A stretch of 32,000 nt of DNA. It comes from Bdellovibrionales bacterium (GTDB lineage: Bacteria; Bdellovibrionota; Bdellovibrionia; Bdellovibrionales; UBA1609). This document shows, piece after piece, positions 3,147-14,257 of this stretch. The notes beneath the pieces are model-generated. The model was not told the origin of the DNA. It did not search any database and saw nothing but the letters and a program-made list of their open reading frames with translations. Within the stretch, counting starts at the first letter, position 1, and each line of letters opens with the position of its first letter. The stretch is taken from positions 150,001 to 182,000 of the forward strand of contig OZ252021.1 in the NCBI GenBank assembly GCA_965247685.1, in the 5' to 3' direction. Position numbers and translations under genes: made by a program.

Positions 3147-4321
3147 GATATATCACCAATAATATTCCAAAATTCAGGAAAACTTTTATTCACACAATCC
3201 AAATTTTTAATCTTCATTTTAAAATTAGCATAATGAAGAAGAGCTGCGGCCATTGCCATGCGATGATCTTTTTTTGGATCAAAATCGATCTCTTGACCTC
3301 TCCCATCTTTTGTATCCCCTATTATTTTAAGTCCACTAGATGTACACTCCGTTGTTCTCCCTATTTTTTGAAGAAGTTCTACAGTTAAATGCAGTCGATC
3401 GCTTTCTTTAAACTTTAAATGAGGAATATTATAAAGAAAACTTTCCCCTTCAGATAAAGCGCAAAGAACAGCTAAAGAAGGGAAAAGATCAGGATTTCGA
3501 GACAAATCAGCATTCAAACTTTTTTTATTTTGAGTAGAAGAAATTATAAGCGATTGACCTTTTGTTTCCACCGAAACTCCCATTCGAGAAAGCAAAGAAG
3601 GGAAAACAGAGTCAGGTTGAATACTATTTTCACACCATGAAGTAAAAATAGCTTTTCCGCTTAAGCTTGCGAAACACGCCAAAGCAAATAAGCAACTCAT
3701 ATCAGGTTCTATTTCGTAGGATTTGGTATGAATCATTTGACTTGCAGGAACAATAAACTCTGGAAATTTTCCTTTAATGTTCACACCTATTTTTTTTAAA
3801 AATGACACTGTCATCTCCAAGTAGGCTAAAGAAACCGGAGGTCCTTCTAAAGAAATAAACACATCTTCATTGAAGCCAAAGCTATTCATCAATAATGCTG
3901 AAGCAAACTGACTAGAAACATCCGAGGAAAAAGTAATCGCATCTCCCTGAAGACGCCATCCCTGACTCTGAATGCTCAGAGTTTGATCATTTTGGAATTG
4001 AGCTTTCACTCCTAATTGAGTGAGTATTTGAACTAAGTGTTGATGAGGTCTTTGAAGTAAAGAGGAAGTCCCAGAAAGGATATATTCTCCTTTTTGACGA
4101 CTCACTCTTAATGCCATAAAACGAAAAGCAGTTGCAGATGAACCACAAAAAATATTGTTTTGATTTGATTTAAAATGATGTAATGCCTGCCTCATTACTT
4201 GAGCATCTTCGCAACGGCTCTCTCCAATGACATTAAAATCAGAAAAATAACTCTGAACAAGATAAGCCCTATTAATGAGAGATTTAGAATAAGGGCCTTG
4301 TCCAATATAAGAAAAACTCAT
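3143..4321 (-). CDS. aroA: 3-phosphoshikimate 1-carboxyvinyltransferase (EPSP synthase)
   Basis: 392 aa with SKSLINRAYL near the N-terminus, FKESDRLHLTVELLQKIG and DHRMAMAAALL near the C-terminus. ATGA-type 4-nt overlaps on both sides (with aroB and the fusion gene). Confidence 0.9.
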   Translation of the reverse strand: MSFSYIGQGPYSKSLINRAYLVQSYFSDFNVIGESRCEDAQVMRQALHHFKSNQNNIFCGSSATAFRFMALRVSRQKGEYILSGTSSLLQRPHQHLVQILTQLGVKAQFQNDQTLSIQSQGWRLQGDAITFSSDVSSQFASALLMNSFGFNEDVFISLEGPPVSLAYLEMTVSFLKKIGVNIKGKFPEFIVPASQMIHTKSYEIEPDMSCLFALACFASLSGKAIFTSWCENSIQPDSVFPSLLSRMGVSVETKGQSLIISSTQNKKSLNADLSRNPDLFPSLAVLCALSEGESFLYNIPHLKFKESDRLHLTVELLQKIGRTTECTSSGLKIIGDTKDGRGQEIDFDPKKDHRMAMAAALLHYANFKMKIKNLDCVNKSFPEFWNIIGDIS

Positions 4322-5337
4322 ACCTTCCTTGCAAAGTTGAGAATATCATCCATCAAAACTTTCTTCACTACCGGCTGCCCTACACCTTTTAAAAAAACAA
4401 ATTCTATTTCTTGAGAAGATATCGCTTTTTTATCCATTTTTAATAACTTTTCTAATGAATATATAGGAATAGGTTGAATACGAGTCACACGAGTATAGTG
4501 ACTAATGAGATCTTTAATCTCCTGAGCAAGTTTTACACTCAAAAACTTTTGATTCACACTCCAATCTATTGAAAATAACATTCCCATTGCAACAGCTTTT
4601 CCATGAGGAATTTGATGGTAAGACTCTAGGCAATGCCCCACAGTGTGTCCAAAATTTAAAATTCGACGAATACCTTTTTTTTCAAAAGGATCTTGGTTCA
4701 CAATATGCCATTTAGATTTTATAGATTCCTCCATAAGACTCCAAATAAACTCAAAATGAGGAGGGGTTTTTCTTTTCAACTTTGCATAAAGTCTATTTTT
4801 CTGAATCAAAGCCATCTTTAACAGCTCTCCATATGCAGAAAATATTTCAGACTTCCTGACAGTTTGTATAAGATTTTTAATAATTAATATCTTTTTTGGA
4901 AAATGATAAGTTCCCAAAACATTTTTGACGGAGCCTATATTGAGAGCTGTCTTTCCCCCATGACTGGCATCTAATGCAGAAAGTAAAGTTGTGGGAATAA
5001 AATAAACAGGCGTGCCCCTCTTATAAAGACTAGAAAAAAAACCAACAAAATCTGTCACACTTCCCCCTCCCACTCCGATAAAAGCCTTTGGAAGAAAGGT
5101 TTGTTTAGAAATAGACTTAGAGATTTTTTGCACCAAATATGGAAAATGATTCAAATCTTTCAGCTTTTCTCCTGCAGACAAAAAGCAAACAGAAGGACTC
5201 TTCCAAGGAACATCTTTTTTTAAACGGCTATCACATATTATAAACACTTCACCATATTGTTTTTTTAAGCTCCTCAATGAAGGACATTTCTTCAAAAAAC
5301 TAACAGATGTACGTTCTAAAAAAGATACAGAATTCAC
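4318..5337 (-). CDS. aroB: 3-dehydroquinate synthase
   Basis: 339 aa with GVGGGSVTDFVGFFSSLYKRG (NAD-binding glycine motif), NFGHTVGH and HGKAVAMGM (metal-binding His motifs). First gene of the cluster. Confidence 0.9.
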   Translation of the reverse strand: MNSVSFLERTSVSFLKKCPSLRSLKKQYGEVFIICDSRLKKDVPWKSPSVCFLSAGEKLKDLNHFPYLVQKISKSISKQTFLPKAFIGVGGGSVTDFVGFFSSLYKRGTPVYFIPTTLLSALDASHGGKTALNIGSVKNVLGTYHFPKKILIIKNLIQTVRKSEIFSAYGELLKMALIQKNRLYAKLKRKTPPHFEFIWSLMEESIKSKWHIVNQDPFEKKGIRRILNFGHTVGHCLESYHQIPHGKAVAMGMLFSIDWSVNQKFLSVKLAQEIKDLISHYTRVTRIQPIPIYSLEKLLKMDKKAISSQEIEFVFLKGVGQPVVKKVLMDDILNFARKV

Positions 5338-5674
5338 TTTGCTACCTGCAATGAATGTGCATTGTTTTGAAAAACCTTTTTCTAAATGCCATTTAACACT
5401 CTTCTAAAAATTCTACAATTAAACTAAAAAACAAAATAACCAGAATTTCTTTTTCTCAGTATACACTTCCCTTGATCTGCAGCAGATAAACTTTCTTTCC
5501 TACTTTCAAAGCCTCATTCGCCTAGCAGTTTGGAATTAAAAGGAGCAAACCTAGATGGATTGTAGAAAAAAAAGGAACGACTTTCATTAAAAAAGCTAGT
5601 CCATTTTTACCATTTTAATTTCCCAAAAGTTACAAGAAGCCTTAGAAGAGCTGAACAGTGTATTATTCAGTTCT

Positions 5675-6220
5675 TTATAGATACCACTGCATTCCAACAG
5701 TTAAATATAAGTGCGGACTGAGCCATCCTTCTTCATCAGGCCGCCGCCTTTCATTAGATAAAGTATATCTTTCACGTGACGTCGTTATAATCAGTCCATT
5801 GCTCAAACCTATCCTTAGAAGAGCATGAAAACCTCCATCCGTAATACGTCTTCTCAAAAATAGTCCTATGTCATGTCCAATATTGATATTAATTCCACCT
5901 CCTTCTTCACTCCCTCCAAGAGAAAAATAGGTATCAACACCATAACTCAAATTAGAACTGGAATCAAAATCGTAGGAATATCCAAAAAGGAGTGGCATCC
6001 TCGCTGCTCGATAACCAGATAAACCTATATTAAACGCACCCACATACTGATCTTGTAAAATATTCCCTCCATAAGATATAAATAACGGATAATTGAATTC
6101 TGTCAGTCTTGTATCAACAGATAGACCCAAATTAAACGAAAGAAAACCTCCTAACTTACCTAATCCTCTTGCTTGAGTACAGAATCCTGTAAACAACAAT
6201 ATCATCAACAAGTACTTCAC
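5675..6220 (-). CDS. hypothetical exported protein, possible small beta-barrel outer membrane protein
   Basis: 181 aa with the signal-like N-terminus MKYLLMILLFTGFCTQARG. Gly/Ser/Tyr-rich alternating segments and a C-terminal aromatic end (..GMQWYL). No recognised domain. Confidence 0.4.
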   Translation of the reverse strand: MKYLLMILLFTGFCTQARGLGKLGGFLSFNLGLSVDTRLTEFNYPLFISYGGNILQDQYVGAFNIGLSGYRAARMPLLFGYSYDFDSSSNLSYGVDTYFSLGGSEEGGGININIGHDIGLFLRRRITDGGFHALLRIGLSNGLIITTSRERYTLSNERRRPDEEGWLSPHLYLTVGMQWYL

Positions 6221-6545
6221 GAGAAACCTCCTAGAATATATCTGATATGAATGCTATAGAATTTTGGAAATTATGTCAACAGTATAAAAATTATGGAGAG
6301 AGAATAGACCTTTGGCATAATTATTGGACAGGTAAATATTTAAATTTCATTAAAAATCTTCCTTTTTTTAAATCATTTTAGATTAATTAATTTTTCTAAA
6401 AGACTGTTTCTTTATTTATGGATTACTTAAAAATTTCCTCGCTCTAGATACCATGATCTGCTGGAGTCTAACTGATTTTTCAAATTCTCCCAATCTGTAA
6501 AGAGAAAAATTGCTCGTGATCAAAATAAAAAAATGATCATTAATG

Positions 6546-6872
6546 AAATGAAAAAATATTCATTCTTCGCTCACAGCTTAATACAAAGAAAAATATCAGA
6601 GTGTCTTTTATTCTAAAAAGAAGAGAGGCTCACTTATTGTTAGGTAGAAAAGATCTGAATCTTTCCTTATAATCAATTTTGAAACATTTAAAACACTTTG
6701 ATTTGTAAAATTTTCACTTTGTAAAATTTTCACTATCTTATAAGAATTTTAGAGAAAATAAATTGAATAAGATAACCTCCTGAACAATATATCTAAGAAA
6801 AATTTACAAAGCATAGAAATTATTATAGACACTATGATTAATTTATACTAATAACAAATGAACTCCAAACAA
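6546..6872 (+). repeat. copy A of a ~325-nt duplicated noncoding leader (partner at 12238-12560)
   Basis: By-eye alignment to 12238-12560 shows long identical blocks: aaatgaaaaaata.tcattcttcgctcacagcttaatacaaagaaaaatatca, ctcacttattgttag, actttgatttgtaaaattttcact, gaaaataaattgaataa.ataacctcc, tagacactatga.taat.tatactaa, caaatgaact. There are a few indels. Copy A has an extra internal duplication of ttgtaaaattttcact. It ends ~10 nt before the TTG start at 6883. Confidence 0.85.
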
Positions 6873-6882
6873 GGAAAATAGA

Positions 6883-8349
6883 TTGAAAATCACCTGCAAA
6901 TATCTTCTGTTTTTATTTTTTGCGCCTTTACTGACTTCAGGATGTGGAGTTTTCACAGAGAAACCACAGAAAGTAAGTGACATATGCAGTCATGCCAATA
7001 GGCTCGATCAAGATTATTTAGAATGTGGAATAAGCCTTGAGATGAATACACCTGGAACAATTAAGCTCAAACTGTCTGGAAAAAACGATCTGCTCAAAAG
7101 CCTGAAAGGACAAGAACTATCATTAGTTACAGAAGCAGACCTTTCAAATAACCCAGAAATGATATCTATTCCTGAATTTATTCATCATTTCCCAAATCTA
7201 AAAACTCTCAATATTTCTCATACTAAAATTTCCAGTTGGGATGAGAATATCTGCCAGCTTGAAAAACTAGAAAAACTCATTGGAAGAAATAACCACTACG
7301 TGGATGATGAGGTACCCTTTCATACTTTCTGCCTTAAAAATCTAAAAGTTCTGGATATGTCTGACAGTCACATTCGGTATGTAGATGAATACATCGGAAA
7401 ACTCACTCACCTCAAAGAATTACACCTATCCGGCAATGACTTAATTCTTGCCCCCTTTATGCTCGTTTCACTAAAGAACTTACAACTAGTAGATTTTCAA
7501 GATAATTCACAATTTATTAATGAAGACTTAGCAACAATACAAAGTTGTGAAGATGAAGATGATGATGACAAAGAAGATTGTCAGGAAGATATTGCGGAGT
7601 CTTTTGAATGTGAGTTTTTTAACCCTATTCCATTTCAAAGAAAAAAACCTTTTAGAACACTATACATAGACCTCGTAGATTCCAGTGAAGTTATTTCAAA
7701 AGCTTGTGAAGAGGATAATTCTCCCATTTGCCCTCATTTTGTAAAACCTTGTAAACATATTACTAATGGAGTTCAAAGAAGAGAATGTATGCTCAATGAA
7801 TTTGAGAGCTTAAATATACATCCAGATCTATGGATTAATAGGGATAGATGTTATACATCTTGGGCAAAATGGTATAATGATTTTGAAGAATTTCCAGAAC
7901 TTTTAGAGTATTCTCTAGCTGGCAGAACCATTAGAGAGTTGCTATTTAGAACTAACTATAGTGAAGATAGATATAAGGATTCCTTAGGAAGAAAAATATT
8001 TGGAAAAGCTTATGGCGGTCCCGATATGACTTGTAATGTCTGGAACCCTGTTTCGGATATCGATTTTGAATTGTTTGGGATAACCCTGTTGGATAATAAG
8101 CCTGATCGAATAGGCCCTCAAAGATTCGAAGTCTTTCCTAAAATAAAGAGAGATATGTATGCTTCCGAGTTTGTCATACTTGCTAACAGAGAAGGATGGT
8201 TGGATTGGAATTTTTTTTATGACGAAGAAACGAAGCGATCAAAATCTATAGACTATATCAGTCAAACGAATCAATGTCCTCACTTGCCAGAGATAAGGGA
8301 AAAAGTGAAAAGATGGATGGAGGAAGTATGGGGCAAAGAACAAAATTAA
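6883..8349 (+). CDS. leucine-rich-repeat lipoprotein with acidic linker and Cys-rich C-terminal domain of unknown function
   Basis: 488 aa with a TTG start 7 nt after aagga. Lipoprotein signal MKITCKYLLFLFFAPLLTSG|C. At least 4-5 LRR units (NLKTLNISHTKIS, LEKLEKLIGRNN, NLKVLDMSDSHI, HLKELHLSGNDL, NLQLVDFQDNS). Acidic run CEDEDDDDKEDCQEDIAE. The ~250-aa C-terminal region has many Cys and Trp. Confidence 0.75.
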   Translation: MKITCKYLLFLFFAPLLTSGCGVFTEKPQKVSDICSHANRLDQDYLECGISLEMNTPGTIKLKLSGKNDLLKSLKGQELSLVTEADLSNNPEMISIPEFIHHFPNLKTLNISHTKISSWDENICQLEKLEKLIGRNNHYVDDEVPFHTFCLKNLKVLDMSDSHIRYVDEYIGKLTHLKELHLSGNDLILAPFMLVSLKNLQLVDFQDNSQFINEDLATIQSCEDEDDDDKEDCQEDIAESFECEFFNPIPFQRKKPFRTLYIDLVDSSEVISKACEEDNSPICPHFVKPCKHITNGVQRRECMLNEFESLNIHPDLWINRDRCYTSWAKWYNDFEEFPELLEYSLAGRTIRELLFRTNYSEDRYKDSLGRKIFGKAYGGPDMTCNVWNPVSDIDFELFGITLLDNKPDRIGPQRFEVFPKIKRDMYASEFVILANREGWLDWNFFYDEETKRSKSIDYISQTNQCPHLPEIREKVKRWMEEVWGKEQN

Positions 8350-11300
8350 TAACTTTAAAGACAAGTTTAAATTATATTTTATCTCTTTCTTTGGTGTTGA
8401 CACCTTATTCTGTTTTAGCAACAAGCTCTTCTTCCCAACAGTCTCTTGATGCTGAATCCTCCATTGAACCCTCCAGTGAATCCTCCATTGAACCCTCCAG
8501 TGAGTCCTCCATTGAATCCTTCTTGGATCAGCTCACAAAGAACCCTAGCTTAGATACTAATAACCCAGAAGTTCAAAGAGCTATTCAAGTAATAAACGAT
8601 TTGCATCAGGATATTATGACAGGAAACCTGTCTCAAGAGGAAAATTCAGAAGTAAGCAAAGAATTTGACACTCTCCGTTTAAGCAATCAGGTTGCAACTG
8701 TCTACGACGCACATGGAAATGTGTCTGGAGTAATACCTTTTGACTCCGAAGGCCATGTGAACAACAATTCATCAGAGAAAATTTTATCTATTGAAGTGAC
8801 GTTTGAATCTGGCTTGCTCACTTTTATCGGAGTTTCCATTCAGGGAGAAGAAGGCCAGGAAAAAAACGTCATAGAAAAACACGTCAGTGTCATTCAAACA
8901 ATTAAAAATATCAATGAAAAAAATGTATTAGAAAAATATGTTTATGATAAAGAAATCTTAGCTATTCTCTACCAAACAAAGGGTGGAATTGAACTTATTT
9001 TATATCACATGAACTACGCCACTGAACTCATCGGAAGGGCTCCCATTCCATCTACATCCTTTTACTTAGAAGAGTCTGATCTCCCAGAAAAGCTGGAATT
9101 AAAATTTGTTTCTCAAGAGAACCCCATTCGCAATTTAAATTTAGATAAGTATCCTATAAGAAACTCTGATGGTCAAAGTCTCCTGCAAGCTGGAGATTTG
9201 ATCATTTATAGCGAAGAAACAAAAAATTTTTCTATGCTCATAACAAGAGAAAATATCTATGAACGTATAAAGGAGATGTATGAAAGCCTTAACCTGCTTC
9301 TAGAAATTTCAAATTCCAGCAACACTTTAGAAAGACTGTTAGAAATATCCAGAGAACAGAAAGATATCAAAGCACATAGTCCAGAACAATTGATGTATGA
9401 TCTCATTAATAGAGTAACCAATCGAAATGCACTATATTTTCTAGATCGATATAGAAATTCAATCACTGGTATAGTACATCTTTTAGATACCTCAACCAAT
9501 GAACAGGAGAGAAATATCTTCATTCCTAAACAAGGGAGTGAAAATAAACCGACCGATGAAAAAAAACCTGAAGAAAATAAGAGAAAAATAAAGAGTTTTG
9601 TTTCTAAACCAATGGACTTCTTCAAATATATTAAATATTTATATCGTAAAGACTTAGCCCATAAAGGGAAGAAAGATCTCTTAACTTTTGAACAATGGAA
9701 AGAGAAAAAGACCGAAGGAAAACAATCTGAAGGTTTCATCAAAGAACACAAACTGGAATTAGCAGTTGCAACAATTGGAGCAGCAGCGGCTGTTTGGTAT
9801 TTTTCCACTTTAAAAGGTTTAGATAACTCTCCTTCAAGTGATGTACTACAGAATATGATCTTGTTAGGTGCAGGTGTATTGGGTTTACTTTACGGAGTCA
9901 CTGCTATTTTTATCCCATTGCTCAAAGGGATTGATAAATTGATTCCACCTGAGCTAAAATCTTTCAAACCTTTCAAACATTCCTTACGCAAAACTATTGA
10001 AAAGTGGCAGGGAAAAGATAAAAAAACATTAATCACTGGGCTGGGCTTTAAATTAGTAGCAGTCTTACTCCCTCTTTTTCACAGGTTATCTCAACTGGGG
10101 GGAGTCCCAAGTGTATTTAACGCATTAACTCGAGGAGTAAACTTCAAGAGTGCTATTGCCACTATTGAATCAGGCTCTGATTTAGGCAAAAAGCTTGGTT
10201 TAACAAAAAATATGAACTTATTTGGAGTGAGAAACCAAGACAAGAAGACAGTTGCTGTGGATTTGATGAGTCAAAGAGATCAAAGAGTCGAACATGTAGC
10301 TCGACTCATGGCTATGCGTGCAATGTTAGGCCACTCACATTTTGACGCTTCTGCAAGATTCTTAGGTACACTCAACTTGGATTTAGAGAAGCTCATAAAG
10401 AACCCTAACTTTGTGTCAGATTTCCAATGGATTTCTCAAACACTAGGTACACATATCTTAGAATCAAAGCAGATTAATGCCTTTCAAGGCCTGTTACAAT
10501 GGGATCAAGAGTCTCTTAATGATTTTTATAAAAGGGCACAAGAATTGTATAAGAAATCTCAAACAATACCTCGTGCACAAAAGATTGGTAAAAACACATG
10601 GGAAAACACTAAACATTTTGTATTCCAAAAAGTTTTTAATTGGAACTCAGCTCAAGCAGAAAGATTAAACAATATGATTCCATCTCACACGATTGCTAAT
10701 CAATTCCATTTAGGATTAATTATAGACCACATTACTATGGTTATGCTTCCTTTGACACTAGCCACGCCCAGAGGAGCCGACGGTATTCTATCAGGAGTTG
10801 ATACGAATCTATTCTTTAATTCGAGCAGACCTCATCTCTTTGAAGCTATAATGAATATTGCCGCGCACGTCTTAGCTACGGGAAGACAACAATTAGTTGA
10901 TCTGAATGCACTAAACATTGAAAGACTAAGAACATTATTGCAAACACAAAAAGCAGATAATAAATTTCAATCAACACAACAAGAAGAAAAAATATCTGTT
11001 CCAACTTTCTGGTTTTCTTCTCTTAAGTTCCCATTTCAACTAGGTACTAAAATCCGTGAAGGCTCTCGTTTTGAAGAAAAAGTAGACATTGGATCTTATC
11101 TATGGAAACTCCTGACAACTAGTTATAGATTTTGGGGTGTTAGCCTCGTTTTTTTATTTACTGGCAGACAATTTTTGACCGCTTCTGGAGTAGATATGAA
11201 CATTTTAGGTGCATTATACTTCTTAGTAGGAGGTATAATCTATTTTGGATGGCCTCAAATGTGGTCGCTGATGCACAATCAATCGTTGAGCAAGAGACTT

Positions 11301-12236
11301 CAATTCAATAAAGAAAATATTGAACTCATCCGCTTTGTAGAACACAAATTAGAAAAGAATCTTTATTCAAACAGGCAACAGGGAATTGATCAAGATTTTC
11401 AAAGAGTTATTACTGCCTTTCGATCACTTTATAGAACTTTTAACCAGATTTATTCAACAACAGTATCCCGTAAACTGTTTCGAACAGATCATAAAGGAAC
11501 AATACTTGACTCTTTGAGAAAAGGCATAGATCCAAGTGTCTTTAAACCTCTCCATACTCTTCTCAATACGAATGACACCAAGGAAGCTAAAAAGATAACT
11601 CAGGATCTGAACAAGCTACTAGATACTAAGCAACAAGAAGAACTAATAAAAATCATTAGTGATATCGTTCAAAATAATCCTGGAGATAAAAACCCTAATT
11701 CTAAATACTTCCCAACTGCAGAGAACAACGTTGCACTTTCCTCTCATCTACTATTGACTCTGGGGATATTCAGTAACTTAGCTTTTGTTTATCTCTCGAC
11801 GGATAGTTTTAATCAAGCACAAGTTAATATTACAAACATCTTACAATTATTTTTTGCCACACTTGGAGGAATTCTATCTTACAAACTGATAACATCTAAA
11901 TCTCTTCCGAATCATAAGGAAAATATTCAAAGATACTATGACAGACTAGCTGGACCGAAAATAAAAAATATTTTATTTTCTGGAAACCCAATACAACAAG
12001 AAATAGTAATTATTGATGCTCTTCGCAAAGCTGGTATAATCACTATGCGTCAACTAAGAAAATTAACAACAGAAGAACTCCTAGCTATACCTGATATAGG
12101 ACAGAAAAGAGTACAAATTATTAGAGAAAGAATGGCAGGTATCCCCTCTTCAAATTCGAAATTTCATTTCATTAGAGATGGAGTGAATAAATGTAAAGCT
12201 GTTCTTCGAAGAATTAACAACACAACAAATGAATAA
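8328..12236 (+). CDS. ~1300-aa exported/polytopic membrane protein of unknown function with C-terminal RpoA-alphaCTD-like HhH module
   Basis: The ORF is open from 8274. I prefer ATG 8328 (GGAGGA at 8319-8324); ATG 8313 is also possible. Signal-like N-terminus MGQRTKLITLKTSLNYILSLSLVLTPYSVLA and an SSIEPSSE repeat. A ~450-aa soluble region is followed by several hydrophobic helices (LAVATIGAAAAVWYFSTL, MILLGAGVLGLLYGVTAIFIPLL, LITGLGFKLVAVLLPLF, ILGALYFLVGGIIYFGW, LLLTLGIFSNLAFVYL, ILQLFFATLGGILSY). The C-terminal HhH module is at 12000-12134. It overlaps the LRR gene by 22 nt. Confidence 0.8.
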   Translation: MGQRTKLITLKTSLNYILSLSLVLTPYSVLATSSSSQQSLDAESSIEPSSESSIEPSSESSIESFLDQLTKNPSLDTNNPEVQRAIQVINDLHQDIMTGNLSQEENSEVSKEFDTLRLSNQVATVYDAHGNVSGVIPFDSEGHVNNNSSEKILSIEVTFESGLLTFIGVSIQGEEGQEKNVIEKHVSVIQTIKNINEKNVLEKYVYDKEILAILYQTKGGIELILYHMNYATELIGRAPIPSTSFYLEESDLPEKLELKFVSQENPIRNLNLDKYPIRNSDGQSLLQAGDLIIYSEETKNFSMLITRENIYERIKEMYESLNLLLEISNSSNTLERLLEISREQKDIKAHSPEQLMYDLINRVTNRNALYFLDRYRNSITGIVHLLDTSTNEQERNIFIPKQGSENKPTDEKKPEENKRKIKSFVSKPMDFFKYIKYLYRKDLAHKGKKDLLTFEQWKEKKTEGKQSEGFIKEHKLELAVATIGAAAAVWYFSTLKGLDNSPSSDVLQNMILLGAGVLGLLYGVTAIFIPLLKGIDKLIPPELKSFKPFKHSLRKTIEKWQGKDKKTLITGLGFKLVAVLLPLFHRLSQLGGVPSVFNALTRGVNFKSAIATIESGSDLGKKLGLTKNMNLFGVRNQDKKTVAVDLMSQRDQRVEHVARLMAMRAMLGHSHFDASARFLGTLNLDLEKLIKNPNFVSDFQWISQTLGTHILESKQINAFQGLLQWDQESLNDFYKRAQELYKKSQTIPRAQKIGKNTWENTKHFVFQKVFNWNSAQAERLNNMIPSHTIANQFHLGLIIDHITMVMLPLTLATPRGADGILSGVDTNLFFNSSRPHLFEAIMNIAAHVLATGRQQLVDLNALNIERLRTLLQTQKADNKFQSTQQEEKISVPTFWFSSLKFPFQLGTKIREGSRFEEKVDIGSYLWKLLTTSYRFWGVSLVFLFTGRQFLTASGVDMNILGALYFLVGGIIYFGWPQMWSLMHNQSLSKRLQFNKENIELIRFVEHKLEKNLYSNRQQGIDQDFQRVITAFRSLYRTFNQIYSTTVSRKLFRTDHKGTILDSLRKGIDPSVFKPLHTLLNTNDTKEAKKITQDLNKLLDTKQQEELIKIISDIVQNNPGDKNPNSKYFPTAENNVALSSHLLLTLGIFSNLAFVYLSTDSFNQAQVNITNILQLFFATLGGILSYKLITSKSLPNHKENIQRYYDRLAGPKIKNILFSGNPIQQEIVIIDALRKAGIITMRQLRKLTTEELLAIPDIGQKRVQIIRERMAGIPSSNSKFHFIRDGVNKCKAVLRRINNTTNE
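8454..8520 (+). repeat. 24-bp in-frame tandem repeat (2.8 copies) encoding SSIEPSSE
   Basis: The unit gaatcctccattgaaccctccagt is repeated at 8454-8477 and 8478-8501. A partial variant (gagtcctccattgaatcct) follows to 8520. Confidence 0.9.
12000..12134 (+). other. alphaCTD-like helix-hairpin-helix module at the C-terminus of the giant protein
   Basis: EIVIIDALRKAGIITMRQLRKLTTEELLAIPDIGQKRVQIIRERM fits the L..AGI.T...L...T..ELL.I...G.K....I pattern of the RNA polymerase alpha C-terminal domain / HHH_5-type modules. The same module is repeated in the next gene. Confidence 0.6.
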
Positions 12237-12237
12237 G

Positions 12238-12560
12238 AAATGAAAAAATACTCATTCTTCGCTCACAGCTTAATACAAAGAAAAATATCAAAGTTTCTTT
12301 TATTCTAAAAAAAGAACAGCTCTTAAAAAGAGGAGAAACTCACTTATTGTTAGATAGGAGAGCTTTAAATCTTTCCTTTAATGCTCAATTTTGAAACACT
12401 TTGATTTGTAAAATTTTCACTATTTTAAGAGTTTTTAAGAAAATAAATTGAATAAAATAACCTCCAAACAAATATATCTAATAAAAATTTCCAATAGTAG
12501 AAATTATCGTAGACACTATGAGTAATCTATACTAACAACACAACAAATGAACTTTAAACA
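12238..12560 (+). repeat. copy B of the duplicated ~325-nt leader (partner at 6546-6872)
   Basis: Begins 2 nt after the stop of the giant gene (TAA 12234-12236) and ends ~40 nt before the ATG at 12601. See copy A for the shared blocks. Confidence 0.85.
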
Positions 12561-12600
12561 ATTCTTCAAAGAATTAACAACAAAACATAAGGAGTAAGAA

Positions 12601-14199
12601 ATGAAAAATAGAAAACCTACCTACAAGGTTAAAGCAATAGACAAATCCACTGTATTTGTATTCTTTGCTGTTTCTTTAATCTTCTCTAGTCATTTTGTCT
12701 ATGCAGTAAGGCCTCTTAATCCAGAGAATTCAATGCGTCTACCTCCGCCTATTATTACTCCGCCTACTATTATTACAGATAGTAATAGTAGGGGGATAAG
12801 TTTTGTTCCAGCAGACACGATAAAAGATAAACTTTTGAACGCTGGCATAAAAACTGTTGGACAATTACACAATTTAACCCCAAAACAACTTAAAGCTATA
12901 CTGGGATCTAAAGATGCAAAACTTGTTCAAAAAGAACTTAATCGGCTAAATATTACTTCCCCTCTCAAAAGAAGTATTGAGGATTTATTTCCTAAAACAG
13001 AAGAACAAGAAATAGTTGCAGCACTTTCTAAAGCTGGCATAAAAAATATTAAAAACCTGCAAGAGTCAACCCCAGAACAACTTCAAGCTATATTGGGAAA
13101 GGAAAAAGCACAACTTATCCTAGAAAGACTTGAACAAACAACTTTGCCTCCTATCTCCGAAATAAGTATTGAGTATTTATTTCCTAAAACAGAACAACAA
13201 AAAATAGTTAAAGCACTTTCTAAAGCTGGCATAAAAACTCTTGGAGATCTGAAAAAATTAACTCAAAGCGAGCTTCGAACTATAAGTGGTCTAAGAGAGA
13301 AAGGTGTACAAAGCATTATAGATGGACTCAAACAACAAGGTATCTCCCTTTCTTCAAAACCGACTCTAAGCAAAAGAATAATTACAGGGACAACTTCTGC
13401 AGCTCAAAGGACAGCTTCTGGGGCAACTTCTTTGGCTCAAACTGTAGTAGATGGGACAGCTTCTGGAGCAACTTCTGTAGTTAAAGGGGCAACTTTTGCA
13501 GCTCAAAGGACAGCTTCTGGGGCAACTTCTTTGGCTCAAACTGTAGTAGATGGGACAGCTTCTGGAGCAACTTCTGTAGTTAAAGGGGCAACTTCTTTGG
13601 CTCAAACTGTAGTAGATGGGACAGCTTCTGGAGCAGCTTCTATAGTTAAAGGGACAACTTCTGTAGTTAAAAGGACAGGAGGAGCTCTTATTCCTAAAGA
13701 AAAGCCCACAGTTGATCTTAGAGAAGGTATTGAAAATTTTTTAGCTACTCCCAAAAGCGAAATCGCCGAAGTGAGTACTGAAATTGAACAATTATTTCCT
13801 AACAACAAAAGTATAGTTGAAGCACTTTCTAAAGCTGGCATAAAAACTCTTGAAGATCTGAACAATTTAACTCGAAAAGAGCTTCTAGCTATAAAAGGTA
13901 TAGGAAAGAGAAGTGTGGAAATTATTCTAGGAATAATAGGAACTCCCTCTTCATTAGAGGAAATATTTGGAAGAAGTATAGCTAAAGCACTTTTTAAAGC
14001 TGGCGTAGACACTCTTGCAGATCTGGACAAGTTAACTCCAGAAGAGATTCTAGATATACAGGGTATAGGAGAGAAAAGTCTGAAAATTATTATAGAAAGA
14101 ACGAGAACTACTCCCCCTTCAACAAAATTGGGGACACTTGGAAAAGCAGCTCAAAAATGTATGCAAGTTGTCGGGTCCCTCCTACCAAAGAAAAAATAA
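12601..14199 (+). CDS. exported or membrane-anchored protein with five alphaCTD-like HhH modules and a central Thr/Ala/Ser/Gly tandem repeat
   Basis: 532 aa, with AAGGAG 6 nt upstream of the ATG. K-rich n-region plus hydrophobic core STVFVFFAVSLIFSSHFVYA|V, then PPPIITPPTIIT. HhH modules lie at about 12814-12948, 12979-13134, 13163-13341, 13783-13938 and 13954-14100 (e.g. IVEALSKAGIKTLEDLNNLTRKELLAIKGIGKRSVEIILGII). The DNA block gcactttctaaagctggcataaaaa recurs at three of them. Confidence 0.8.
   Translation: MKNRKPTYKVKAIDKSTVFVFFAVSLIFSSHFVYAVRPLNPENSMRLPPPIITPPTIITDSNSRGISFVPADTIKDKLLNAGIKTVGQLHNLTPKQLKAILGSKDAKLVQKELNRLNITSPLKRSIEDLFPKTEEQEIVAALSKAGIKNIKNLQESTPEQLQAILGKEKAQLILERLEQTTLPPISEISIEYLFPKTEQQKIVKALSKAGIKTLGDLKKLTQSELRTISGLREKGVQSIIDGLKQQGISLSSKPTLSKRIITGTTSAAQRTASGATSLAQTVVDGTASGATSVVKGATFAAQRTASGATSLAQTVVDGTASGATSVVKGATSLAQTVVDGTASGAASIVKGTTSVVKRTGGALIPKEKPTVDLREGIENFLATPKSEIAEVSTEIEQLFPNNKSIVEALSKAGIKTLEDLNNLTRKELLAIKGIGKRSVEIILGIIGTPSSLEEIFGRSIAKALFKAGVDTLADLDKLTPEEILDIQGIGEKSLKIIIERTRTTPPSTKLGTLGKAAQKCMQVVGSLLPKKK
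13393..13676 (+). repeat. in-frame 99-bp tandem repeat (2 full near-identical copies plus truncated or degenerate copies)
   Basis: 13393-13491 and 13492-13590 differ by a single base (acttctgca vs acttttgca). The third copy (from 13591) lacks the first 33 nt of the unit and then degenerates. The encoded unit is TSAAQRTASGATSLAQTVVDGTASGATSVVKGA. Confidence 0.92.
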
Positions 14200-14223: not shown

Positions 14224-14257
14224 AAGTGATTTGCTATTTATAAATAGCAAATCACTT
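14224..14257. terminator. perfect 34-nt palindrome between convergent genes; likely bidirectional intrinsic terminator
   Basis: aagtgatttgctattta / taaatagcaaatcactt are exact reverse complements. The palindrome lies between the stop of the HhH gene (14199) and the stop of smc (14272). The flanking U-tracts are only modest. Confidence 0.55.

Follow-up and report, generated by a model that had tools for sequence, protein, structure and literature searches.

In a 32,000-nt stretch of the genome of a Bdellovibrionales bacterium (contig OZ252021.1, positions 150,001 to 182,000; hereafter the window, with a G+C content of 34%), a non-coding unit of about 325 nt occurs twice. Unit A is located directly upstream of a gene for an LRR lipoprotein, which is followed by the gene of a giant membrane protein. 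Unit B is located between this giant gene and an orphan gene for a secreted protein with HhH repeats (Table 1). Unit B is very probably a segmental duplicate of unit A. The explanation towards which we lean overall is that unit B is the remnant of a microhomology-mediated duplication, that it would have carried the promoter region of the LRR-giant operon to the HhH gene, and that the element acts as DNA and not as a structured RNA.

Two copies of a non-coding unit

The first-pass annotation of the window had reported a duplicated non-coding leader of about 325 nt, and this duplication is real. Both copies lie on the plus strand and align from end to end (blastn, E 6.5e-73). In the MAFFT alignment 264 of the 300 aligned positions were identical (88%), with 53 gap columns, and the differences amounted to 36 substitutions and 6 indels in about 330 nt. 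The 18-nt insert described earlier in unit B was located at 12306-12323, and the 16-nt tandem duplication of TTTGTAAAATTTTCAC in unit A at 6702-6717 / 6718-6733. The insert in unit A, given as 12 nt, has an actual size of 9 nt (6682-6690), and three more small indels were found beyond those listed before. The CT-rich blocks that had been pointed out are indeed present in both copies (tctttcctt at 6660 and 12370, ataacctcc at 6771 and 12462). Stop codons were found in all six frames of both units. The first 69 nt (6545-6613) were identical at 66 positions (96%), compared with 86% in the remainder (p about 0.03) and about 84% in the 3′ third.

A 20-mer of the unit occurred twice in the window, where 0.00 occurrences were expected. 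With an nhmmer profile built from units A and B, the window yielded no copy beyond these two, and the six fetched loci yielded none; a candidate for a third, partial copy at 6224-6288 did not reach significance. The wider search used exact 20-27-mers from three blocks of the unit against genome, metagenome and viral contig collections. The 20-mer had no match in GTDB representative genomes, JGI metagenomes or IMG/VR. The sole match of the scan was the 25-nt sequence CTTTGATTTGTAAAATTTTCACTAT from the centre of the unit, which was found at positions 1184-1208 of locus L005 and 3233-3257 of L006. Both sites are intergenic and belong to two metagenome contigs of 44-49% G+C with no other homology to the window; the match, which may be due to chance or to a common binding motif, was set aside.

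Junctions and origin of unit B

The homology between the two units ends abruptly on both sides, at 6545 / 12237 and at 6872 / 12561. The left end of unit A is formed by the 11-mer GAAATGAAAAA (R1), identical copies of which are found at the left end of unit B and around the start codon of the HhH gene (R2). Unit B starts 1 nt past the stop codon TAA of the giant gene (12234-12236). The left flank of this junction is as at the HhH start (...TAA/GAAATG), and its right flank is as in unit A (AATAyTCATTCTTCGC). Such a hybrid junction on a short common sequence is what a duplication is expected to leave. Both copies are in direct orientation, and the spacing between their starts, 5692 nt, equals the length of the segment 6545-12236, the second copy thus beginning where the duplicated segment ends, as in a tandem duplication.

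Both copies had been said to end just before a start codon. This holds for unit A, which ends 10 nt before it, but not for unit B, which ends 39 nt before it, the gap being a duplicate (X2) of the last 35 nt of the giant gene (X1). Taken together, the direct repeat around unit B (12202-12247 versus 12562-12608) reaches 89% identity over 47 nt (E 5e-11). X1 and X2 appear to be of the same age as the units because their identity is about 89% versus 88%, and a distal remnant of the same age as the proximal one is again expected of a duplication. The differences between X1 and X2 are concentrated at the Shine-Dalgarno (SD) sequence of the HhH gene, AAGGAG (12589-12594), which sits in X2 and to which AATGAA corresponds in X1. 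A perfect palindrome of 12 nt, TTCTTCGAAGAA, was observed at the start of X1 (12202-12213), at the site of the deletion endpoint considered below; its version in X2 carries one mismatch (TTCTTCAAAGAA). For comparison, four loci of relatives (L001-L004) were used, of which L001 is from the nearest genome, L002 and L003 are metagenome contigs and L004 belongs to a Bdellovibrionales metagenome-assembled genome (MAG). The LRR-giant pair is present in all of them; the relatives have no HhH gene and no second unit.

The hybrid junction, the X1/X2 repeat and the abrupt ends of homology point to a segmental duplication with deletion, or to one double template switch. The specific route of duplication plus deletion is considered reasonably likely, the order of events being reconstructed. 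In the first event, two copies of GAAATGAAAAA, one located 338 nt before the LRR start (6545) and one at the HhH start, would have been the sites of an unequal recombination or of a template switch, by which the segment 6545-12236 (5692 nt: unit, LRR gene and giant gene) was duplicated head to tail. A second event would have removed the equivalent of 6873-12201 (5.3 kb) from the new copy. Of the new copy, the 325-nt upstream region and, after it, the 3′-terminal 35 nt of the giant gene (X2) would have stayed behind, between the giant gene and the HhH gene. Alternatively, a single double template switch resembling microhomology-mediated break-induced replication (MMBIR) would give the same product. 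The ends of the unit would then owe their positions to the rearrangement by accident and would not delimit a functional module. In promoter-capturing duplications and deletions, microhomologies of 3-12 bp at the junctions have been documented experimentally (PMC6614815). The event is of an ordinary, known kind, and the present instance of it is well resolved.

A 19-nt patch in the tail of unit B is identical to an internal part of X1 (100% over 19 nt, E 6e-4), which suggests a short secondary conversion between the two.

A dispersed or mobile repeat, of the kind of a miniature inverted-repeat transposable element (MITE) or a repetitive extragenic palindrome (REP), could have landed in two intergenic sites. 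The full-length unit is missing from the relatives, and AAATGAA occurs at the head and tail of each copy, as such an element might show. When the head of the unit was compared with its reverse-complemented tail, however, the score was no better than with shuffled sequences, so that terminal inverted repeats are lacking. The flanking repeat, at 47 nt, greatly exceeds a target-site duplication in length and is not one, and these two results make a mobile element unlikely. Furthermore, the 3′ half of unit A is ancestral at its locus, being homologous to the region upstream of the LRR gene in L001 (see below), only two copies were found in the 32-kb window, and the 20-mer search of the three public collections was negative. 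This origin is considered very unlikely. The Correia elements of Neisseria carry terminal inverted repeats, are flanked by a TA target duplication and occur in hundreds of copies; they can bring promoter elements to adjoining genes. Like them, the unit is a short non-coding repeat able to carry promoter elements to neighbouring genes; unlike them, units A and B showed neither terminal inverted repeats, nor a TA target duplication, nor hundreds of copies in the window search.

A conserved, probable control region in the 3′ half

The 3′ half of both units was found to be homologous to the intergenic region between aroB and the LRR gene of L001 (Table 1), and the whole 155-nt region of L001 (8606-8765, ending on the ATG of its LRR gene) is colinear with it. 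In a null set of 3338 real windows of 170 nt (L001-L004, both strands; mean score 25, sd 6), the homologous window of L001 topped the list for A and for B. The next unrelated window scored 50 for unit B, and the runner-up for unit A was close, at 60. The other intergenic regions of the window gave z values of at most 2.2. The upstream regions of L002, L003 and L004 had no significant match to the unit, and the claim of conservation rests on position-specific tests and on the single outgroup L001.

Coding DNA of the window is 58% identical to that of L001 for the giant gene, 65% for the LRR gene and 70-73% for aroA, aroB and SMC; protein identities range from 45 to 70%, with 66-70% for the housekeeping proteins. 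The 3′ half of the unit is probably under constraint because it is non-coding and yet as conserved (63-67%) as the LRR coding DNA at this divergence, which is the footprint expected of constrained cis-regulatory DNA where neutral sites are saturated. From these comparisons, the 3′ 150 nt of the unit are taken to be under constraint as the region that controls the LRR gene from upstream. Both units are at the same distance from L001 (10 derived changes for A, 11 for B), which indicates that unit B decays no faster than unit A. Where the sequence is conserved between species, A and B resemble each other less than elsewhere, so that the similarity of the two copies would mainly reflect a recent event and not selection.

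The sequence 5355-5448, just upstream of aroB, weakly resembles the intergenic region of L001 (p about 0.03) and the centres of A and B (p about 0.01-0.02); the ancestral intergenic region may have left a third, older remnant here. Decayed 5′ coding sequence of the LRR or HhH gene was considered as the origin of the unit and rejected, local alignments being no better than with shuffles. The sequence TGTAAAATTTTCA, a candidate operator common to the LRR upstream regions of L002 and L004, was rejected as well, since matches with up to 2 mismatches are frequent everywhere.

Predicted promoter elements

The 3′ 150 nt most likely hold a promoter with a -10-like box (TATACT in the window, CATAAT in L001) 8-13 nt before the ancestral start codon, together with upstream sites. 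This assignment is predicted from sequence. TATACT is the best conserved -10-like hexamer and falls within 3 columns of the CATAAT of L001 in the three-way alignment. A -35-like hexamer, TAGACA/TGGACA, is located 12-15 nt upstream of the -10-like box, with best position weight matrix scores of 5-6 bits. The first-pass annotation had placed TATACT 30-55 nt before the starts of both genes. The box is present in both copies and the distance is correct for unit A (34 nt before TTG 6883), but it is 68 nt before ATG 12601 in unit B. The option of a shared promoter or operator, which had been raised together with a cis-regulatory RNA and recent gene conversion, is the best-supported functional reading, owing to the homology of the 3′ half to the LRR upstream region of L001. 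If TATACT/CATAAT is a -10 box, most of the unit would be upstream of the transcription start, and 'leader' is probably a misnomer. A sigma-54 reading of TGGCAT-N-GCA in L001 was discarded by eye, its spacing being off by one and the motif not being found in the window.

Small open reading frames

An open reading frame (ORF) of 22 codons, MKKYSFFAHSLIQRKISECLLF, occupies the head of the unit. The conserved 69-nt head covers all of it except the last 3 nt, and the 18-nt indel starts at its stop codon. The three differences between its copies are one synonymous and two non-synonymous. A coding role of this ORF is unlikely. It would matter if unit B were an older duplicate kept similar to A by repeated gene conversion, or if the small ORF were selected as such or as a leader peptide. 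The high identity of the first 69 nt (96% versus 86%), a block which holds nearly all of the small ORF, is in line with this, and the 19-nt patch is evidence that conversion occurs at the locus. In contrast, the small ORF has no SD sequence, whereas the LRR gene, the HhH gene and a 181-aa ORF of the locus each have one, and two of its three differences are non-synonymous. The hairpins expected of a leader-peptide attenuator were not detected: neither copy contains a terminator-like site, and no terminator or antiterminator for attenuation was found. The identity of X1 and X2 (89%), like that of the units, fits a single event. This alternative is regarded as improbable.

In the tail of each unit, a vestigial ATG opens an upstream ORF (uORF). 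The ATG is at the position of the LRR start of L001 in local alignments; MAFFT aligns the L001 start with TTG 6883 instead. Both uORFs contain the SD sequence, and their stop codons precede the real start by 1 nt (TAG-A-TTG) or 3 nt (TAA-GAA-ATG). This arrangement could be translational coupling or coincidence.

The option of an RNA leader

The first-pass annotation had also proposed a cis-regulatory 5′ untranslated region (UTR) RNA, an option that found no support. Such an RNA would be a riboswitch, a thermosensor or an anti-SD leader in which the ribosome-binding sites of the two genes are masked by CU-rich blocks. Indeed, UUUCCUU (6662-6668) is the perfect complement of AAGGAAA at the ribosome-binding site of the LRR gene, with which it is paired in the minimum free energy (MFE) fold of unit A; UUCCUU is able to pair with AAGGAG in B, and both CU-rich blocks have been kept between A and B. 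Any SD sequence, however, is complementary to such CU-rich blocks, and in the MFE folds the SD sequence has other partners in A than in B. L001 has TAATCTGC in place of the ACCUCC block, which is thus not conserved there, and the CU-rich blocks would not be transcribed with the genes if TATACT is a -10 box.

When the Rfam covariance models were applied, only tRNAs reached the gathering score, and up to E<=10 nothing was common to both copies at homologous positions of the unit. The sole family matching both regions, snoJ26 (E 1.3 and 2.3), did so mainly over the unrelated downstream genes. The folds of A and B were not significantly stable (MFE z-scores -0.56 and -1.12), and 0 of the 57 pairs of the consensus fold showed a compensatory change, a comparison of low power with two sequences. 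A large imperfect palindrome in the 5′ half was significant in A (82 vs 38 +/- 8), not in B, and was set aside as it had no thermodynamic support. Like leader RNAs (riboswitches, T-boxes, anti-SD thermometers), the unit is located upstream of start codons and has CU-rich blocks complementary to SD sequences; unlike them, it has no covariance-model match, no significantly stable or conserved fold and no covariation. An RNA leader is considered very unlikely. The unit appears to belong to no RNA family and to no known mobile repeat class.

The HhH gene and its transcription

The HhH protein is an orphan found only in the present genome, and no separate HhH gene exists in L001-L004. HhH-like sequence was found in these relatives only at the C-terminal ends of the giant genes of L001 and L002. 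The last module and tail of the HhH protein are 42% identical to the C-terminus of the giant protein over 66 aa, and other modules reach up to 52%. Given this homology, the HhH gene would be an older local derivative of the 3′ end of the giant gene. No homologue of its N-terminus was found in the window or in L001-L004. The coding sequences flanking the two units had been described as unrelated, which is true of the LRR and HhH genes but not of the giant gene, whose C-terminus is homologous to the HhH modules, nor of the 47-nt flanks of unit B, which are 89% identical. The HhH gene is also rich in recent internal duplications, with 99-nt tandem units that are 96% identical and module copies of 80-81% identity. 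The locus is a hotspot of local duplication.

Before the event, the HhH gene would have been located 3 nt behind the stop codon of the giant gene and would have depended on read-through of the operon. Between the giant gene and the HhH gene, no site resembling a terminator was found; the HhH gene was, and probably still is, co-transcribed with the operon, and the absence of a terminator makes co-regulation of the LRR-giant pair and the HhH gene likely in any case. Behind the HhH gene, in the gap before the convergent SMC gene, a perfect hairpin of 15 bp is probably a bidirectional terminator. Through unit B, the conserved upstream region stands intact a second time, 50-200 nt before the start codon of the HhH gene. 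The HhH gene would now also have its own copy of the promoter region of the operon and respond to the same signals. The effect of unit B is most likely that of an internal promoter with the same regulation, and co-regulation of the HhH gene with the LRR-giant operon is plausible on these grounds. Whether unit B acts as an active promoter is evenly balanced.

The same origin would also allow unit B to be a neutral scar, drifting and with no regulatory effect, the HhH gene being expressed by read-through of the operon. The boundaries set by rearrangement junctions, a divergence (36 substitutions and 6 indels) that resembles that of unconstrained sequence, the lower similarity between A and B of precisely the part conserved across species, and the lack of a terminator behind the giant gene are all compatible with it. 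On the other hand, unit B has retained all of the conserved 150-nt region intact, has not diverged further from L001 than unit A and even outscores it in the comparison, and a promoter copied intact is expected to fire unless it is context-dependent. A neutral scar is thought to be a possible but rather unlikely outcome.

Several observations weigh against a duplication which brought the operon promoter region to the HhH gene. No canonical sigma-70 promoter is conserved, and the 12-nt spacing between TAGACA and TATACT is wrong (16-18 nt expected). The nhmmer profile of A and B reached only E = 3.7 on the L001 region in a search space of 230 kb. The 5′ half of the unit (6545-6717) had no homologue in the window or in L001-L004, and yet its first 69 nt are the best conserved between A and B. 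Finally, the 19-nt patch shared by X1 and the tail of unit B demands an extra small conversion event.

A bolder version of the favoured duplication, which is put forward tentatively, is that the 150-nt core may serve as a portable control cassette, in which a promoter is combined with a vestigial leaderless start codon and with a short uORF whose stop lies 1-3 nt before the real start. The duplication would then have been selected, as it would have made the recently born orphan HhH gene an independently transcribed member of the LRR-giant regulon. If true, promoter capture would here have completed the birth of a gene, as a natural and fixed event in a reduced genome.

The surrounding locus

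The locus L001 is syntenic with the window, with aroB, the LRR gene, the giant gene and then a convergent SMC gene; in the window, SMC is located 3′ of the HhH gene and convergent with it. The distance between aroB and the LRR gene is only 155 nt in L001. In the window, aroB and unit A are separated by a 181-aa ORF with a signal peptide and a C-terminus similar to outer membrane proteins (OMP). This orphan ORF was found in no genome but the present one and is missing from the syntenic locus of L001.

The LRR start at 6883 is supported by the alignment with four orthologues, across which the GC of the lipobox is invariant. An LRR lipoprotein gene directly followed by a gene for a multi-pass membrane protein of 1250-1320 aa is a pair kept in five lineages, one of them a Bdellovibrionales MAG. 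The giant protein (1307/1320 aa) has a homologue of 45% identity in L001 according to MAFFT (40% with BLASTP) and of 27% in L004, and no Pfam family was assigned to it except for the HhH tail. Near the 5′ end of its gene, 12-nt tandem repeats (8453-8524) encode (S)SIEPSSE repeats just past the signal peptide. In comparison with L001, the protein seems to have a C-terminal extension of 7-8 residues (RINNTTNE; window 12201-12236 versus L001 13890-13925). On inspection by eye, this extension, within which X1 and X2 fall, would be explained by a small indel close to the former stop codon of the ancestor (AATTAA).

Table 1. Coordinates of the genes, repeats and predicted elements in the window
Feature	Position	Strand	Remarks
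Shikimate operon	last gene aroB 4318-5337	-	
181-aa ORF, OMP-like	5675-6220	-	between aroB and unit A
Unit A, non-coding	6545..6872	+	directly upstream of LRR lipoprotein gene; aligns end to end with 12237-12561
R1, GAAATGAAAAA	6545..6555	+	left end of unit A, microhomology; identical 11-mer at 12237-12247 and 12598-12608
22-codon small ORF, unit head	6548..6616	+	copy in unit B at 12240-12308; no SD sequence upstream
3′ half of unit A	6718..6862	+	versus L001 aroB-LRR intergenic region: Smith-Waterman 64, z about 4, reached by 0-1 of 300-500 shuffles; 63% nt identity
TAGACA in unit A	6826-6831	+	12 nt upstream of TATACT
TATACT in unit A	6844..6849	+	predicted -10-like hexamer
Vestigial ATG with 7-codon uORF, unit A tail	6858..6881	+	local alignment with L001 ends on this ATG; uORF ends 1 nt before TTG 6883
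LRR lipoprotein gene	6883..8349	+	TTG start; Pfam LRR_4 and LRR_8; N-terminus and lipobox GC align with four orthologues
Giant membrane protein gene	8313..12236	+	C-terminal HhH module; P0001 100% identical, 1307 aa
X1, last 35 nt of giant gene	12202..12236	+	includes stop codon; direct repeat with X2
Unit B, copy of unit A	12237..12561	+	between giant stop codon and HhH gene; 88% identical to A
Hybrid junction, GAAATGAAAAA	12237..12247	+	left flank of R2 type, right flank of R1 type (three-way display)
3′ half of unit B	12404..12551	+	versus same L001 region: score 88, z 8.4-8.9, reached by 0/500 shuffles; 67% nt identity
TATACT in unit B	12528..12533	+	TAGACA at 12510-12515
19-nt patch	12533..12551	+	identical to X1 12215-12233
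Vestigial ATG with 16-codon uORF, unit B tail	12547..12597	+	ends 3 nt before ATG 12601
X2, remnant copy of giant 3′ end	12562..12597	+	31/35 positions as in X1, one 1-nt indel
R2, GAAATGAAAAA	12598..12608	+	includes HhH start codon ATG 12601
Orphan HhH-repeat secreted protein gene	12601..14199	+	532 aa; Pfam HHH_5 1e-27
HhH internal repeats (examples)	13379-13675, 12968-13284, 13199-13930		
Hairpin, 15 bp, perfect	14224..14257		between convergent HhH and SMC genes; z -4.0

Comparison with known systems and significance

In Escherichia coli, promoter capture by microhomology-mediated duplication or deletion has been described as a way to activate silent or transferred genes (PMC6614815), and the capture of a promoter by citT through duplication in the long-term evolution experiment is among the cases cited there. 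The present case resembles these events in its short junction microhomology (11 nt here versus 3-12 bp there), in the duplication and deletion steps and in the placement of an existing, here putative, promoter region before another gene. Unlike the laboratory events, it is natural, fixed and 12% diverged, and it took place in a small AT-rich genome. It also differs in that the HhH gene would have obtained a second, internal copy of the predicted promoter of its own operon, and not a foreign one.

In Borrelia burgdorferi, the erp (OspE/F-related) genes have a conserved promoter/operator region, the upstream homology box, which is taken to explain their co-expression (PMC10016077). Similarly, the unit is a conserved non-coding upstream region common to genes with unrelated coding parts, known here from sequence data. 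The erp box is present in multiple copies on cp32 prophages, extends into a common leader peptide and is recognised by the operator-binding proteins BpaB, BpuR and EbfC, whereas the two copies of the unit are chromosomal and 5.7 kb apart, with no common signal peptide and no known binding protein.

A well-conserved intergenic duplicate need not be an RNA element, and caution is called for in such cases; here, similarity reflects recency, and the borders are rearrangement junctions. The locus gives a base-by-base view of how a new gene may be rewired, in which an 11-nt microhomology, a duplication and a deletion would suffice to put a constrained, predicted promoter region before an orphan gene. 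It has also revealed a conserved non-coding element upstream of a widespread, uncharacterised operon that encodes an LRR lipoprotein and a giant membrane protein. Both the conserved 150-nt element and the apparently stepwise birth of the orphan HhH gene are worth following.

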